Assembly: GCA_963705295.1 (NCBI GenBank)
Contig: OY970065.1
Location: 1,408,001 to 1,472,000 of the forward strand
From: Parachlamydiales bacterium
GTDB taxonomy: Bacteria; Chlamydiota; Chlamydiia; Chlamydiales; Rhabdochlamydiaceae
DNA length: 64,000 nucleotides
Reading direction: 5' to 3'
Below the pieces are notes generated by a model that was not told the DNA's origin, made no database searches, and was given only the letters and a program-made list of their open reading frames with translations. Every line of letters begins with the position of its first letter. Position 1 is the stretch's first letter. This document shows positions 3,212 to 53,858 of this stretch, piece after piece. Both the position numbers and the translations under genes were made by a program.

Positions 3212-3367
3212 TAACGGGGCCAATAAAAAGGCGACAACCTGCTTGCTGCGGCTTCGCCATATCGATTCTCGCTCAGAATCCTTCGTGTTCAAGAATGTTA
3301 TTCCTCGCGAGAATCAATCTGGCTTTGCCTCGCAGCGCATCTTGTCACCTTTTTATTGGCCTCGTTA
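3212..3367. mobile_element. palindromic MITE-like element, copy E1 (152 bp plus TA duplication)
   Basis: TA-ACGGGGCCAATAAAAAGGCGACAA ... TTGTCACCTTTTTATTGGCCTCGT-TA; core nearly identical to reverse complement of E3/E4 cores; starts right after the stop of 1133-3211. Confidence 0.85.
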
Positions 3368-3400
3368 TTAAGAACGTCTGATAATTGATCTTATGTTGGG

Positions 3401-3838
3401 TTAAGAACCAGAAGTTTTGCGCTTTTGGGCTGGAGGATTTGGGATATTCGCCAAAACTTCACCAGCCTCTTCCTTATCCTCTAATTCTTCAAGCTCTTTT
3501 ATCGAATAAAAATAGACAACGTCATCACCTTGGTCCTGACGGCTTGAAAGCGTAAGATAAAGGTCATCCTTTGATAGCTCTCCGTGAATACTTCCCATCA
3601 CTATATGGAAATCCATTAGAAACTGATCGAAAGAATCTTCAGAATCTCGCCTACTCTTACTATTTAAAATCGTAAAATCCCTCGTCTGAATATTGTAGAC
3701 CACATCGAATGTAGGATGAGCTCTTTTCAGACTTCGATAAAATATCCCAACTTCCTTTGCTGCTTTTTGGCCGAAATCTCTTTCGACAGCATTCAGAAAT
3801 GGAAAATAAACTCTTTGCAATGGTTGTAGTGTTGCCAT
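3401..3838 (-). CDS. hypothetical protein
   Basis: ATG 3838 preceded by AAGGAG; acidic stretch then basic C-terminus PPAQKRKT. Confidence 0.65.
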   Translation of the reverse strand: MATLQPLQRVYFPFLNAVERDFGQKAAKEVGIFYRSLKRAHPTFDVVYNIQTRDFTILNSKSRRDSEDSFDQFLMDFHIVMGSIHGELSKDDLYLTLSSRQDQGDDVVYFYSIKELEELEDKEEAGEVLANIPNPPAQKRKTSGS

Positions 3839-4031
3839 AAATAACTCCTTTTTATGAGAAAAATTATATCCCTTATTATAATACATATTCAACACAATAC
3901 TAAACAATTAATTATGCTATATTTAGGATAGCTTGTATCTCATGTTGGCCTTCCAAGCATTTTTAATTTAAAGAAAAGGCCTATTCTGTTAAAATGATTA
4001 CTTAATAAGACCAATTAATAAGGAGTACAAA

Positions 4032-4565
4032 ATGAGTTCTAATACACAAGCAACTAGCAACCAGTATCTTACAACTTTATATTCAACTCAAGGCGCAGTG
4101 AGCCCTTCAACGCAAGTCACCCATTCTCAAGAATATACAACTTCTACCGGATTGATGGTATATGACCGTACAAAAGGTATTTCAAATATTGCCCTGGAGA
4201 TTGTTCATTCACCAGAATTGAGCCGCAAGCATCAAATGAATTCTTATCTTCTCTTCCTTAATGGTAAAAAAGTGATTGATGTAAAGTCCAAGGTCTCGAA
4301 TAGAGCTAATGATCCTGGTTTAGTATTAAAAGGAACTGTAAAAATTTTATTTCAAATGGCAAATTGGGGTGGCATTGAAATTTACGCAAAAGACATTAAT
4401 GGATTAGCACAAATAATTATTGAGGAGCCCACAAAATGTATCGATGGAGTTGCTTACTCAGCTTTAGTGTCAGCTACCCCATCGTCAACGATGAAGGATA
4501 AATCGCAACTATTAGGATTAACCAAAGAAGCAGAAAATAATGAGCCGTTTAAGTTTTTAGCTTAA
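4032..4565 (+). CDS. hypothetical protein, tandem paralog A
   Basis: AAGGAG RBS; Ser/Thr-rich N-terminus; shares DRTKGISNIALEIVHSPELS with 4705-5199. Confidence 0.8.
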   Translation: MSSNTQATSNQYLTTLYSTQGAVSPSTQVTHSQEYTTSTGLMVYDRTKGISNIALEIVHSPELSRKHQMNSYLLFLNGKKVIDVKSKVSNRANDPGLVLKGTVKILFQMANWGGIEIYAKDINGLAQIIIEEPTKCIDGVAYSALVSATPSSTMKDKSQLLGLTKEAENNEPFKFLA

Positions 4566-4704
4566 AACTTTATTCTTATGTTGGTTGTGGGCCGGGCCAA
4601 CCTTGATCTCATGTTGGCTTTTCCAGCTTTTTTAATTTAAAGAAAATGGGTATAATGTTAAAATTATTTCTTAATAAGAACAATTTTAAATAAAAGGAGT
4701 AAAA

Positions 4705-50889: not shown

Positions 50890-52424
50890 AAAGAACCTTA
50901 AGTGGCCTCGAAAAACAGTGGGACATCATTATTATTGGTGGTGGCGCCACAGGGCTTGGAGCGGCGGTCGATAGTAGCTCGCGCGGTTTTAAAACACTTC
51001 TTCTCGAGCAACACGATTTTGCTAAGGGAACCTCGAGTCGGAGCACGAAACTCATCCACGGCGGCCTCCGGTATTTGCAGCAAGGCAATGTTGGCCTTGT
51101 GATGGAAGCCCTCCATGAGCGGGGCCTTCTCTGCCAAAATGCTCCCCATCTGGTCCACAAAATCCCTTTTGTCGTTCCTCTCTATCATTGGTGGGAGGCA
51201 CCTTTTTACGGGATCGGACTAAAAATCTATGACGTGCTCGCTGGCGAACTAGGCCTCGAGCCTTCCAAACATCTCACTCGCCGGCAAACCCTCCAGGCTA
51301 TCCCGACCATCGAGCGAAAAGGGCTCCGCGGCGGCGCTCTCTATTTTGATGGACAATTTGATGACGCCCGGCTCGCCATCACTCTCGCACAAACCGCTAC
51401 CGATCATGGCGCCACCATCTTGAACTACATGGAAGTAACCTCCTTTTTAAAGAAGAAAGGAATCATTGAAGGGGTCCGTGTCACCGATTCAGAAACCGGC
51501 AATCACTACTCTCTAAAAGCGAAAGTTGTGATCAATGCAACCGGCGTTTTTTCCGACAAACTCCGAAAAATCGATGACCAAAGAGCCCGTCCCATGCTCG
51601 AGCCCAGCCAAGGGATCCATCTCGTTCTCCCTGCCTCTTTTCTTCCGCGTGCATCGGCAATTTTAGTTCCTCATACCGATGATAAACGGGTGATTTTTCT
51701 CGTTCCGTGGCATGGAAAAGTTCTCATCGGGACGACCGATAGCCCTGTTAAAAAAGCCGATCTCGAACCTCAGGCCCTCAAAGAAGAGGTACAATTTCTC
51801 TTGAAACACGCAGCCCGCTACCTTGCCAAAGATCCAAACCTAAGTGACATTCTCAGCATCTACGCCGGCCTTCGACCTCTTTTGAAAGCTAGTGGAAAAT
51901 CGACCGCAGCCCTTTCCCGCGACCACTCCATCATCACCTCTAAGTCAGGCTTGATCACCATCGCGGGTGGGAAATGGACCACCTACCGAAGAATGGGCGA
52001 AGATGTGATCAACAAAGCGATCCGTGTCGGCAAACTCCCCTTCCGCGCCTGCATCACTTCTACTCTACAGCTCCATGGGTTCGAAAAAAAGATCGACCTT
52101 ACCGATTCGCTCAGTGTCTACGGCTCCAACATCAAAGAATTAAAAAGACTCATCCGTCATAAAAAAAGCCTCTCCGAAAAAATTACTCCCGATCTCCCCT
52201 ACACAAAAGCAGAAGTTGTCTTTGCCATTCGTCATGAAATGGCTCGGACCGTCGAAGATATTCTCGCTCGCCGGACCCGCATCCTCTTTCTCGATGCCCG
52301 TGCAGCAATCAAAGCCGCTCCCCTCGTCGCAAAAATTCTCGCACACGAACTCAAAAAATCACCCGCCTGGGAGAAAAAACAAATCAAGGAATTCATCTAT
52401 GTCGCGAAACGTTATCTTCCCTAA
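50886..52424 (+). CDS. glpD: FAD-dependent glycerol-3-phosphate dehydrogenase
   Basis: [37 protein letters not shown] overlap with glpK. Confidence 0.95.
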
Positions 52425-52983
52425 ACTTTACCTTATCCGGCATGGCGCCACCGAGTGGTCTGAAACCGGCCAGCACACCGGTAACACTGACATCTCCCTC
52501 ACCGATCTTGGGAAAAAACAAGCCCAACTTCTCAGCAAGCAGCTCCAACAATACCATTTTTCCAAAGTCTTCTGCAGCCCTTCCAAACGGGCCCAAGAAA
52601 CATGCCACATCTGCGGCTTCAAACCCACCCTTGACCCTAATCTCTCCGAATGGAACTACGGAAAATACGAAGGACTCACCCTCCAGGAAATCCACCAAGA
52701 TAACCCCAATTGGGATCTCTTCCGTGACGGTGCACCGCTCGGTGAATCACTAAGCGACATCGCTCTCCGAGCCCGTCATTTCATCGATCACAGCCTGCAC
52801 GCCGACGGAAACATCGCCATCTTCTCCAGCGGTCATCTCATGCGCGTCCTCGCCTCCGTCTGGCTTGAAATTCCTCCCCTCACCGGAAAACACCTCTATC
52901 TCTCCCCCAGCTCCATTTCCATCCTCGGATTCGAACACGCAAACCGCGTCATCCTCTCGTGGAATAATACATCACATCTTTAA
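52399..52983 (+). CDS. histidine phosphatase family protein
   Basis: LIRHGATEWS, CSPSKRAQET, EWNYGKYEG. Confidence 0.9.
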   Translation: MSRNVIFPKLYLIRHGATEWSETGQHTGNTDISLTDLGKKQAQLLSKQLQQYHFSKVFCSPSKRAQETCHICGFKPTLDPNLSEWNYGKYEGLTLQEIHQDNPNWDLFRDGAPLGESLSDIALRARHFIDHSLHADGNIAIFSSGHLMRVLASVWLEIPPLTGKHLYLSPSSISILGFEHANRVILSWNNTSHL

Positions 52984-53052
52984 AATTATTGCTTTAATTC
53001 CTTCAAAGATTTACGGATGAGGAGTAGACATCCAGAACAAAGGAGGATCATT

Positions 53053-53739
53053 ATGCGTCAATTTTTTCTTATCCTATTTTCTCTAACCATCTTTTCCGCC
53101 CATCTTCAAGCCGGCTGTTGTCCTCAAGACGGAGGCGATCATTGGCAGGCTCTTAAGAGAGGAAATAAGAAGTTTGTTCGAAATCCAAGATTTGCACGGC
53201 AAAGGGCAGGATTGGTGGATGGGCAAAATCCCCCTTTTCTGGTTTTAAATTGCTCCGATTCTCGCGTTCCTCCGGAACTTATTTTCGATCAGACATTAGG
53301 AAGGCTTTTTGTGGGGCGAGTGGCGGGAAACGTTGCTGATAATGTCGTGATTGACAGTTTTGAATATGCAGCTACGCATTTTGATGTGACAACGATTGTT
53401 GTGATGGGTCATTCAAAATGTGGAGCAGTCATCGGAGCGCTTGATCATCTTAGACGGAATCATGGAAAGATTGATCCTCCAAACCCTAACCATCATAATG
53501 CTGTTTTAATTCCAATTGAAAGAGCGATCGTTGCAGCCGGGATTGATATTTATGCCCCCAATGCTCTCGAATTATCTATTAAAGCGAATGTTTCTTATGT
53601 GGCGAAACAAATGTTAAAGAAATCGAAGCTTATTTCTGCTTTGGTTGCGAAGGGTAAAATTAAAATTATTGGATCCGAATACTATTTAGCATCAGGAAAA
53701 GTGCACCAACTATTCGTCATCGATAGCTCTAATCTTTAG
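53053..53739 (+). CDS. secreted beta-class carbonic anhydrase
   Basis: AGGAGG RBS; signal peptide; CSDSRV, RVAGN, GHSKCGA. Confidence 0.92.
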   Translation: MRQFFLILFSLTIFSAHLQAGCCPQDGGDHWQALKRGNKKFVRNPRFARQRAGLVDGQNPPFLVLNCSDSRVPPELIFDQTLGRLFVGRVAGNVADNVVIDSFEYAATHFDVTTIVVMGHSKCGAVIGALDHLRRNHGKIDPPNPNHHNAVLIPIERAIVAAGIDIYAPNALELSIKANVSYVAKQMLKKSKLISALVAKGKIKIIGSEYYLASGKVHQLFVIDSSNL

Positions 53740-53744
53740 TTCAC

Positions 53745-53858
53745 TAACCCGAAGGTCAAATAGTTAATAAAGATGCTTGCTGCGGCTTTACCAAATCGAT
53801 CTTCCTCGTTGGCTTTGCCTCGCTAAGCCCTTTTGTCAACTATTTGACCTTCGGGTTA
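53745..53858. mobile_element. palindromic MITE-like element, copy E5 (110 bp, shortened core)
   Basis: TA-ACCCGAAGGTCAAATAGTT ... AACTATTTGACCTTCGGGT-TA; core TGCTTGCTGCGGCTT...TGGCTTTGCCTCGC shared with E1. Confidence 0.85.

Follow-up and report, generated by a model that had tools for sequence, protein, structure and literature searches.

Correia elements (NEMIS) of Neisseria have 26-bp terminal repeats and duplicate a TA target, and no transposase is known to move them. Elements derived from IS200/IS605 and REP elements lack terminal inverted repeats, produce no target duplication, insert with a strand or replication bias and are served by an HUH Y1 transposase. The long hairpin transcript of Correia elements would be an RNase III substrate at the terminal repeats, according to the accessible part of a published study (PMC10969869). 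Some Rickettsia palindromic elements (RPE) sit in frame in ORFs and are translated as part of the host protein; the accessible part of a review puts the total at 44 insertions, close to half of which lie in ORFs. The accessible text of a 2024 review of prokaryotic MITEs has no word beginning with 'Chlamyd'.

The window, a 64-kb stretch of a chlamydial genome, carries five copies of a palindromic element that were marked by the first-pass annotation; direct reading and a profile search agree with it on the limits of all five, and neither found a sixth copy within the window. These copies and the ORF that hosts two of them are given below, with the strand of a copy being the orientation of its asymmetric core.

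E1, 3212..3367, minus strand: complete copy, 156 nt; arms 3212-3237 and 3342-3367; arm type GGGGCCAAT
E2, 26264..26442, plus strand: complete copy of the long-core subfamily, 179 nt; arms 26264-26289 and 26417-26442; arm type CCTCCACGC, matched on both arms
E3, 45274..45430, plus strand: complete copy, 157 nt; arms 45274-45299 and 45405-45430; arm type AGGGAACT
E4, 46555..46709, plus strand: complete copy, 155 nt; arms 46555-46580 and 46684-46709; arm type (C)TGAGGGGTC
E5, 53745..53858, minus strand: short copy with a reduced centre, 114 nt; arms 53745-53770 and 53833-53858; arm type CCGAAGGTC
Host ORF, 45218..47107, plus strand: 629 aa, arylsulfotransferase family; contains E3 close to the start and E4 within the domain

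Every copy forms a long hairpin. Its terminal inverted repeats measure 26 nt, and in each of them a conserved tip, (T)TAAC, and a conserved inner box, AAA-N3/4-GACAA, located 17 nt away, enclose a free middle of 8-10 nt. The proposed arrangement TAAC-N17-GACAA...TTGTC-N17-GTTA holds, as do its exceptions, namely the degenerate GACAA of E5 and the ..GGATTA end of E2, and the fixed 17-nt spacing is maintained within as well as across species. The core contains two conserved boxes with GGC(A/G)AAGCC that lie around a variable apex in the same orientation, as direct repeats conserved across species. The size of the element is 88-240 bp overall and typically 155-157 bp; complete copies span 114-203 nt in this genome and 88-239 nt elsewhere, leaving no room for a gene.

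A genome-wide profile search confirmed that this is a dispersed family: the 2.13-Mb genome contains 79 loci distributed over the whole chromosome, 62 of them complete, in addition to approximately six solo-end fragments. The strict motif occurs 124 times (61 + 63) compared to about 11 occurrences per strand expected from composition, and 119 of these fall within the 79 loci. In 57 pairs of copies, the cores are at least 99% identical, and the flanks of the 62 complete copies share nothing beyond 4 nt, that is, the copies occupy dispersed, unrelated sites. The family is also represented in other assemblies. BLAST detected it in 6 of 18 congeners. Copy positions are not common to congeners and the present genome. 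Among the 401 sampled genomes of the order, none of which matched a reversed control pattern, 10 carry the family, this genome included; excluding it, the family is found in 5 of 48 genomes of its own family and 4 of 49 genomes of a second one. A strict motif scan with one genome per species yielded 74 pattern matches, and the profile confirmed 52 of these loci, from 24 other assemblies with mostly chlamydial titles (34 loci); the 22 unconfirmed matches are all in non-chlamydial records.

Relative to genes, 26 of the 79 loci abut a stop codon (2.3% of random points do so) and 9 are located inside ORFs of at least 150 aa (87% of random points). In the window, the stop codon of an LRR-protein ORF (1133-3211) ends 1 nt before E1, ORF 25487-26257 terminates 6 nt upstream of E2, and a carbonic-anhydrase ORF (53017-53739) terminates 5 nt upstream of E5. 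At the 5' end of the arylsulfotransferase-like ORF, E3 lies within the open frame, and E4 is read through in frame farther downstream, splitting the domain while leaving the frame unbroken: PF05935 aligns to the ORF on either side of E4, over profile positions 10-203 and 254-374. Pfam domains similarly continue on either side of copies in TPR proteins. Genic copies survive only where the frame stays open, and copies otherwise accumulate just after stop codons and between genes. The suggested RPE-like behavior is borne out by in-frame copies inside ORFs. The copies show no bias in orientation, either with the neighboring gene (12 in the same direction, 17 in the opposite one) or with the replichore (22 vs 19 on one, 24 vs 14 on the other), and Rfam gave only weak generic hairpin matches (36 bits vs a gathering score of 150), indicating a feature of the DNA rather than of RNA.

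All 62 complete copies are flanked by TA at both ends, and at least 56 show a second TA register one step further out, within a symmetric context, TAT^TA..TA^ATA (A at position L-2 in 62 of 62 copies, T at L-1 in 57 and A at R+1 in 56). A piggyBac-like 4-bp TTAA duplication was considered and excluded because the outer base varies in 5 of the 62 copies, being C..G in three and A..T in two, so that the two sides are complementary, not identical; E5, with C..G in place of T..A, belongs to this minority. The flank pattern is compatible with a TA duplication, for which it makes this family a candidate. A search for a real empty site of any copy found none, and the five palindromic empty sites proposed in the first-pass annotation remain reconstructions; hence both the TA duplication and the mobility of the element are putative.

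The self-complementarity of the arms is pronounced. Full arms are perfectly paired in 24 of the 62 complete copies and contain at most one mismatch in 38; for the N17 segments, the respective numbers are 29 and 41. Among the 57 distinct sequences, 96.9% of the cells are paired, compared to 78.6% in shuffles and 35-46% in slid controls, and 15 of the 26 pairs change on both sides, with 241 double-change cells against 69.6 +/- 7.2 in shuffles. Pairing thus far exceeds that in shuffles despite the numerous double changes, in agreement with the covariation that was claimed from five copies. The accompanying claim that the arms are copy-specific does not hold: the arms are self-complementary and differ among the five copies in the window, but those of the 62 complete copies form 11 clusters (20, 16, 8, 4, 3, 3, 3, 2, 1, 1 and 1 copies), and the impression of specificity arose because the five window copies sample five different clusters. 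This grouping into subfamilies is one half of a condition that the first-pass annotation named as refuting its reading, the other half being that each subfamily matches the terminal repeat of a known IS. The arm variants are subfamily markers that reassort with the cores, as opposed to arms rewritten de novo in each copy. A single arm type is combined with three or more core clusters, and a single core with many different arms. As reported previously for E1 and E4, the cores of these copies differ in 5 of 104 aligned columns and the arms in 8 of 10 variable positions. Among the 284 pairs of copies with at least 95% identical cores, 132 differ in 6-8 of the 10 variable arm positions. Ordinary point mutation cannot yield such arm divergence between near-identical cores; arms and cores have recombined among subfamilies, with both arms of a copy staying complementary.

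We searched for an enzyme that could mobilize the family. Neither the proposed IS630-family or HUH transposase with matching ends nor any autonomous partner with the same ends turned up in this genome or the relatives that were searched. DDE_3, DDE_Tnp_1, rve, DDE_Tnp_1_2 and DDE_Tnp_1_4 have no match in this genome. The mariner and piggyBac searches were blank as well (PF13843, piggyBac-like, 0 of 71 genomes), and they are uninformative because their controls gave no match anywhere. Five congeners yielded no two family ends spaced 0.7-3 kb from each other, and among five other genomes that carry the element, four have no DDE_3 or only a fragment. The IS630, IS605 and IS1380 copies present in relatives have ends unlike those of the element; the IS630 remnants, in particular, occur in two congeners (G014 and G017) and have unrelated ends.

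With a probability of about 0.7, we interpret these sequences as non-coding quasi-palindromic elements dispersed across the genome by a transposase acting in trans, that is, as an orphan MITE family with a Correia-like anatomy and RPE-like behavior, undescribed as far as Rfam and the searched literature extend. The small non-coding size, terminal inverted repeats and many dispersed copies are MITE features. The tip and the inner box would be the putative cleavage and binding sites of the transposase, and the arm middle would only have to pair. A transposase binding both ends does not by itself explain complementarity at unconstrained positions; fold-back or hairpin synapsis of the ends, template-switch correction inside the quasi-palindrome, or the two together could maintain the pairing. 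The polarity of the direct GGC(A/G)AAGCC boxes is left unexplained by a simple symmetric model of terminal inverted repeats. The arm divergence between near-identical cores and the blank searches for a transposase partner and an empty site likewise count against the reading. In this genome, the family is probably an orphan now, either immobile or moved by an enzyme yet to be recognized.

The same boxes appear elsewhere, namely at position 1253586 of this genome, with wholly different, perfect 35-nt arms, and in another hairpin family, where they occupy the apex. A 162-nt TATACC..GGTATA palindromic element of the same genome, a hairpin repeat that lies in frame in a gene and is also present in other chlamydial assemblies, shares a GG(C/T)AAAGCC-like box with the present family but differs in its ends and interior and is undetected by our profile. 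It is unlikely, albeit conceivable, that the present family, this TATACC-ended element and the variant with 35-nt arms belong to a superfamily of concentric hairpin elements of environmental chlamydiae, mobilized by an enzyme outside the recognized transposase families that reads stem pairing and GGC(A/G)AAGCC mini-hairpins rather than the arm sequence. If so, outer arms and inner modules would be freely swappable while the element stays mobile; such an enzyme would also explain persistence across at least two chlamydial families without a matching transposase.

Also unlikely is transposition as a single-stranded hairpin, by an HUH/Y1-type or other enzyme that reads stem geometry and the GGC(A/G)AAGCC hairpins; because such an enzyme would read structure, the arms might take any self-complementary sequence. 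The strong covariation with free sequence in the middle of the stem, the direct orientation of two conserved mini-hairpin boxes on one strand and the reuse of these boxes with other arms and in another family speak for this mechanism, and d(GCGAAGC) is an unusually stable DNA mini-hairpin. This genome also contains a Y1_Tnp remnant, and the congener G010 contains an intact IS605, but the former is broken by a stop codon and the ends of the latter are unlike the element. Furthermore, IS200/IS605-type elements show the replication-direction orientation bias that is missing here, and the combination of symmetric terminal repeats with TA flanks, which HUH elements lack, is a signature of DDE cut-and-paste transposition.

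A nested origin appears improbable. Under this scenario, the arms and one box were a hairpin element in their own right, and the core was a second palindromic module inserted at the apex, duplicating GGC(A/G)AAGCC, so that arms and cores would be independent modules. The free combination of arms with cores fits this scheme, as does the centre, which terminates in inverted sequences of its own, AGATCGA..TCGATAT, and lies between the two direct box copies; two minimal forms of 88 nt (L060 and L127) contain a single box and lack the centre, and nesting of one palindromic family in another is seen directly at L070, where the 162-nt element sits inside a copy of the present family. However, the minimal forms are rare (2 of the 52 confirmed loci) and would equally result from deletion between direct repeats, the long-core subfamily (E2 type) has inverted, not direct, sequences in the corresponding place, and, apart from the variant at position 1253586, no free centre modules were found outside family arms. 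Finally, a regulatory hairpin retained by the host for its function (a terminator, mRNA stabilizer or sRNA) is very improbable: the enrichment after stop codons and a very stable fold with compensatory changes (E4 as a single-stranded DNA hairpin has a computed energy of -52.6 kcal/mol, z -12) are offset by the mixed orientations beside genes, copies inside ORFs, the sequence ..GTTAATAA in place of a run of T after the hairpin, the lack of a specific Rfam match and positions not common to congeners.

The orphan MITE reading adds an abundant family to a phylum for which no described one emerged from the literature searches. The copies are markers of genome plasticity in Chlamydia-like symbionts. 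They lie where genes end, and some lengthen real proteins by about 51 codons, the second natural instance of a behavior known from RPE. As a clean natural data set in which at least 16 arm variants are joined to several cores, the family bears on the complementarity of drifting inverted repeats and on which features of a terminal repeat a transposase recognizes. In annotation, such repeats cause ORFs to be extended spuriously, and they can also interrupt the assembly of chlamydial metagenome-assembled genomes.

The novelty suggested in the first-pass annotation is upheld by the Rfam comparison and by the accessible portion of the searched literature, neither of which contains a description of the family, and comparison with known systems delineates it further. 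An IS200/IS605-derived or REP/RAYT identity was rejected given the terminal inverted repeats, the lack of replichore bias and the presence of only a broken Y1_Tnp. MITEs derived from IS630/Tc1-mariner (RUP) share TA at both ends and the symmetric N-TA-N' context and, by analogy, may share a terminal repeat in which the cleavage tip is set at a constant distance from an internal binding box; however, this genome lacks DDE_3, and the ends do not match those of the IS630 remnants in congeners, as they should in an IS630-derived MITE. RPE, likened to the present family by behavior rather than sequence, are also palindromic and about 150 bp long, and their host lineage is likewise obligately intracellular. 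They belong to another phylum, no record with a rickettsial title matched the strict pattern in the scan of one genome per species, and Rfam has no RPE sequences; the present family has a much smaller genic share (9 of 79 loci in long ORFs) and well-defined inverted-repeat ends with TA flanks. Correia elements, likened by description, are similarly small (approximately 100-200 bp), non-coding, present in many copies and intergenic near genes, and by analogy a long hairpin transcript of the chlamydial element would be an RNase III substrate at its terminal repeats. The present family differs from Correia in that its terminal repeat is bipartite and has a free middle that covaries, that it carries two direct GGC(A/G)AAGCC boxes and that some copies lie in frame within genes.

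The five copies in the window, read directly, are quasi-palindromes of 114-179 nt that start with TAAC and end with GTTA, with GACAA and TTGTC placed 17 nt in from the left and right ends, respectively; the exceptions are E5, in which the left box is degenerate, and E2, which terminates in GGATTA.

E1, window 3212-3367, TAAC-ended palindromic element
E2, window 26264-26442, same family
E3, window 45274-45430, same family
E4, window 46555-46709, same family
E5, window 53745-53858, same family

The first-pass annotation had reported these limits, the TAAC-N17-GACAA geometry (N17 being the 17-nt segment between the tip and GACAA) and both exceptions; a five-copy profile run over the genome returned the same limits, and reading of all five places bore out the geometry and the exceptions. 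No sixth copy was detected in the window by the genome-wide profile built from E1-E5. The reported contrast between E1 and E4 also holds, with the cores (the sequence between the arms) differing in 5 of 104 aligned columns and the variable arm positions in 8 of 10. Folded as single-stranded DNA, E4 forms one long hairpin (-52.6 kcal/mol, z = -12), and none of 200 dinucleotide-preserving shuffles was as stable.

The studied genome (G000) is a single contig (C1) of 2,131,910 bp with 43.8% G+C, of which the window is C1:1408001-1472000, and the family occupies about 80 sites in it: the profile search identified 79 non-overlapping loci, 62 of them complete (starting with TAA, ending with TTA and longer than 110 nt), and there are about six more solo ends or fragments. 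The strict word TAAC-N17-GACAA has 61 + 63 matches, the expectation from composition being about 11 per strand, and 119 of these 124 matches fall in family loci. Copies of 155-159 nt (39 of them) form one length class and those of 166-203 nt another, and the family includes subfamilies of near-identical copies.

When 57 distinct full-length copies, drawn from G000 and other assemblies, are aligned, an anatomy of concentric shells emerges. The invariant tip, TAAC, is followed by a free segment (columns 5-14), then by an inner box (AAA-N-A-N2/3-GACAA) in which several columns are invariant, and by a moderately conserved stretch; of the core boxes, the left one reads ..GCGAGGCAAAGCCAGATCGA and the right one TCGATATGGCAAAGCCGCAGCAAGC, and the centre of the element varies by lineage. 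Both boxes carry GGC(A/G)AAGCC in the same orientation, which gives the element a polarity that holds across species; 81 of the 118 occurrences of this motif in G000 lie inside the 79 loci. Minimal copies of 88 nt in other assemblies (L060 and L127) contain a single box and no centre, and E5 represents a form intermediate toward these. A small intergenic hairpin at window 7539-7569 (CCTTC..GAAGG), with 81% identity over 31 nt to the apex of the short-core subfamily, may be a chance likeness or a remnant.

The arms, 26-nt terminal inverted repeats, evolve as pairs. Across the 26 outer pairs of the alignment, 96.9% of the 1482 cells are paired, compared with 78.6 +/- 0.6% for shuffled partners and 35-46% for partners displaced by 1-3 columns. 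Changes on both sides are found in 15 of the 26 outer pairs; double-change cells number 241 vs 69.6 +/- 7.2 in shuffles, further pair types 50 vs 36.6, and none of 500 shuffles equalled the observed covariation score. RNAalifold independently predicts the same stem. Within G000, each of positions 5-14, 17, 19 and 21 has 3-6 kinds of standard pair and is 77-100% paired, and mismatches are conserved at positions 27-28 and 32-34. A by-eye tally of G:T vs A:C mismatches in the stems (about 34 vs 23) is not decisive as to an asymmetry. The N17 segments are perfectly complementary in 29 of the 62 complete copies and have at most one mismatch in 41. The earlier description of the arms as copy-specific and self-complementary is thus upheld insofar as they differ between copies yet pair; copy-specific they are not, given that the 62 copies have 42 distinct arm pairs in 11 clusters (of 20, 16, 8, 4, 3, 3, 3, 2, 1, 1 and 1), five of which are sampled separately by E1-E5. 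The E2-type subfamily mostly shows a fixed disagreement of 2-4 nt between the arms, CCTCCACGC vs CCGACACGC, and a few of its members, E2 among them, have arms matched to one version or the other.

Arms and cores have also reassorted. In 284 pairs of copies the cores are at least 95% identical, and the number of differences in their 10-nt variable segments has two peaks (0-2 positions in 106 pairs, 6-8 in 132). Point mutation at the core rate cannot produce such a distribution; whole arm pairs or whole cores have been exchanged. The arm CCGAGAGGTC is paired with at least three core clusters that are mutually less than 90% identical, and a single core cluster of 37 copies includes 22 different left-arm variable segments. 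A copy at G000:C1:1253586-1253691, in which the family core boxes lie between unrelated, perfect 35-nt inverted arms with TTATAC..GTATAA ends, within a 603-aa open frame, points in the same direction. The exchange could proceed by inter-copy conversion, by template-switch re-palindromisation or by an inner module becoming nested in an outer hairpin.

The family strongly avoids gene interiors and is concentrated at stop codons, and in six cases, the element's own TAA terminates the host ORF.

Gene context of the 79 family loci in G000 (ORFs of at least 150 aa; inside, at least 30 nt on each side; abutting a stop, -12 to +31 nt)
Inside an ORF of at least 150 aa: 9 of 79 loci; random points, 87%
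Abutting the stop codon of an ORF of at least 150 aa: 26 of 79 loci; random points, 2.3%
Near or over a start: 19 of 79 loci
Elsewhere: 25 of 79 loci

Copies inside genes survive only where the frame stays open. A single 629-aa ORF contains both E3 and E4, and the ORF parts that flank E4 separately match PF05935 (arylsulfotransferase), at profile positions 10-203 and 254-374; thus, E4 interrupts a real domain with the frame kept, the net gain being 153 or 159 nt depending on the register. Copies also lie in frame in an AbiEii-family protein, an NB-ARC/TPR protein, a malic-enzyme paralogue and a 732-aa protein that contains internal repeats; a PDB sequence search with the protein that hosts E3 and E4 gave no match. 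The copies are oriented without bias with respect to the adjacent gene (12 same, 17 opposite) or the replichore, so that neither a strand-specific RNA function nor replication-biased insertion is supported, and the unbiased orientation argues for a selfish element acting at the DNA level.

The site preference is narrow. Outside TAAC..GTTA, the left positions L-3/L-2/L-1 are T/A/T in 59/62/57 and the right positions R+1/R+2/R+3 are A/T/A in 56/60/56 of the 62 complete G000 copies, and 41 copies from other assemblies have the same flank pattern; position 4 shows a preference only, and the flanks from position 5 outward are unremarkable. The first outside position covaries, the left base being non-T in 5 copies and the right one complementary in all five (C..G three times, A..T twice); no left-right covariation was found at outside positions 2-6. 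Because duplicated sides would be identical and the observed ones are complementary, a 4-bp TTAA duplication (piggyBac-like, TTAA/CCC..GGG/TTAA) is excluded. A TA duplication could be read as TA/AC..GT/TA in an 8-bp palindromic target, TAT-TA-ATA, or, equally, as TA/(T)TAAC..GTTA(A)/TA, the target then being a plain TA with T..A weakly preferred. Unoccupied sites of the octamer TATTAATA are rare in G000 (38 vs at least 57 occupied), and we therefore lean toward the plain TA register over TAT-TA-ATA.

Searches for empty sites yielded none. The flanks of all 79 loci, compared with G000, matched just repeats and paralogues; the malic-enzyme-like ORF that contains a copy is a diverged paralogue, and its relatives align just up to the insertion. 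A comparison of 3.5 kb around E1 with 18 other species of the genus detected no DNA-level synteny and no empty E1 site, and matched just family copies and one conserved stretch of 27-33 nt. This stretch (window 3371-3399, 29 nt, 3 nt from the right end of E1) is 88-100% identical in 13 of the 18 species, with no DNA-level alignment around it; it has no Rfam match at E <= 1, and its one metagenome occurrence, on a contig of another species in an unrelated context, carries no information on the empty site. Among the sequencing runs found, no RNA run contained words of the window, and a soil DNA run sharing a few words yielded one 151-nt contig, located in the arylsulfotransferase gene body and not at a copy.

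Beyond G000, E4 used as a BLAST query had relatives in 6 of the 18 congeneric species; 12 genomes representing 12 other families in the order gave none. Of 401 genomes sampled from the order, 10, counting G000, contain a strict pattern combining tip, spacing, inner box and first core box; leaving G000 aside, they amount to 5 of 48 genomes in its own family and 4 of 49 in a second one. A reversed control pattern matched none of the 401. Scanned over one genome per prokaryotic species, the strict pattern matched 74 loci, of which 52, in 24 assemblies, were confirmed by the profile. The titles of 34 confirmed loci read Chlamydiae, Chlamydiia, Chlamydiales, Rhabdochlamydiaceae, Candidatus Rhabdochlamydia or similar, 10 read Verrucomicrobia or similar and 8 just 'bacterium'; one Verrucomicrobia-titled set (loci L062, L070 and L126) is identical in sequence to matches in G306, a genome placed in the window's own family. 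The 22 unconfirmed loci are all in non-chlamydial records, and their number is close to the chance expectation for the pattern. A search of PLSDB plasmids gave no match.

A link to IS630, which the first-pass annotation had raised, found no support in G000 or the relatives examined: Pfam searches of G000 gave no match to DDE_3 (IS630), nor to DDE_Tnp_1, rve, DDE_Tnp_1_2 or DDE_Tnp_1_4, and the ends of the IS630 remnant found in relatives (G014 and G017) are unlike those of the family. The same is true of the ends of the intact IS605 of G010 and the intact IS1380 of G258. Searches for mariner (Transposase_1) and piggyBac (DDE_Tnp_1_7) were blank but carry little weight, the positive controls being also silent. 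Among five other genomes that carry the family, DDE_3 had no match in three and just a fragment in one. The end pattern has 35 occurrences in five congeners (reversed control, 0), among which no inverted pair of family ends 0.7-3 kb apart was found. Thus, G000 and the relatives examined yielded no autonomous transposase partner for the family. G000 itself contains a Y1_Tnp (HUH, IS200/IS605-type) transposase remnant with an internal TGA (C1:631488-631646), and the congener G010 has an intact TnpA and TnpB pair (L054).

The most likely mechanism is mobilisation by a transposase, supplied in trans, with cleavage at the tip and binding at the inner box, which would account for the fixed spacing of 17 nt; the segment between tip and inner box would go unread by the enzyme and yet would have to match its partner. 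Quasi-palindromes become perfect through intramolecular template switching in replication (quasipalindrome mutagenesis). Such mechanical correction might keep the arms matched, as might selection should the ends need to form a stem by folding or in synapsis; the conserved mismatches just inside the stem and the direct-repeat boxes indicate that correction is not element-wide or that selection resists it there. A single-strand mechanism that reads structure seems to us an unlikely alternative to mobilisation by a trans-supplied transposase. In its favour, the GCGAAGC/GCAAAGC motif of the family boxes resembles d(GCGAAGC), a very stable DNA mini-hairpin, and also caps another hairpin repeat family in G000.

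Several other repeats accompany the family. CACCGAG-type repeats with a GCGGCGAAGCCGC apex form a third hairpin family in G000 (C1 833505, 881361, 1357577, 1538583, 1591091, 1693657 and 2036078) that has the GGCGAAGCC mini-hairpin motif in common with the TAAC-ended family. The second palindromic family, with TATACC..GGTATA ends, is found at about C1 924046-924215, at the start of an aldo/keto-reductase-like gene, and at L070 in another assembly, a member is nested in a copy of the TAAC-ended family. The flanks of two copies contain a short repeat family (C1:1984245-1984950; related sites 747833-747975 and 2109703-2109832) that is palindromic, as some sites match on both strands, and comprises a tandem array of about 146-bp period. 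The window also encompasses three tandem paralogous ORF pairs with 73-88% DNA identity (24654-26257, 36008-38068 and 4032-5199), the first of which has no Pfam match and has a 1.5-kb copy elsewhere in G000 beside other family copies.

Rfam contains no family that matches at the gathering level, with weak hits to plant miRNA-precursor hairpins only at E <= 1, and the listings of a full-text literature search included no description of chlamydial MITEs or palindromic elements. No word that begins with 'Chlamyd' occurs in the accessible part of a 2024 review of prokaryotic MITEs, and the main text of a Rhabdochlamydiaceae genomics paper, likewise in its accessible part, treats transposases only. 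Overall, the observation in the first-pass annotation is confirmed and its interpretation is supported in part only: the repeats constitute a new orphan MITE family, found in environmental chlamydiae and of a kind already known, in which covarying and reassorting terminal arms are unusually clear. The family qualifies as a MITE for which neither a duplication nor a partner is proven, and it could be assigned to none of the named families; in anatomy, it is nearest to the Correia-type and IS630-type MITEs and, in behaviour inside genes, to the Rickettsia palindromic elements.
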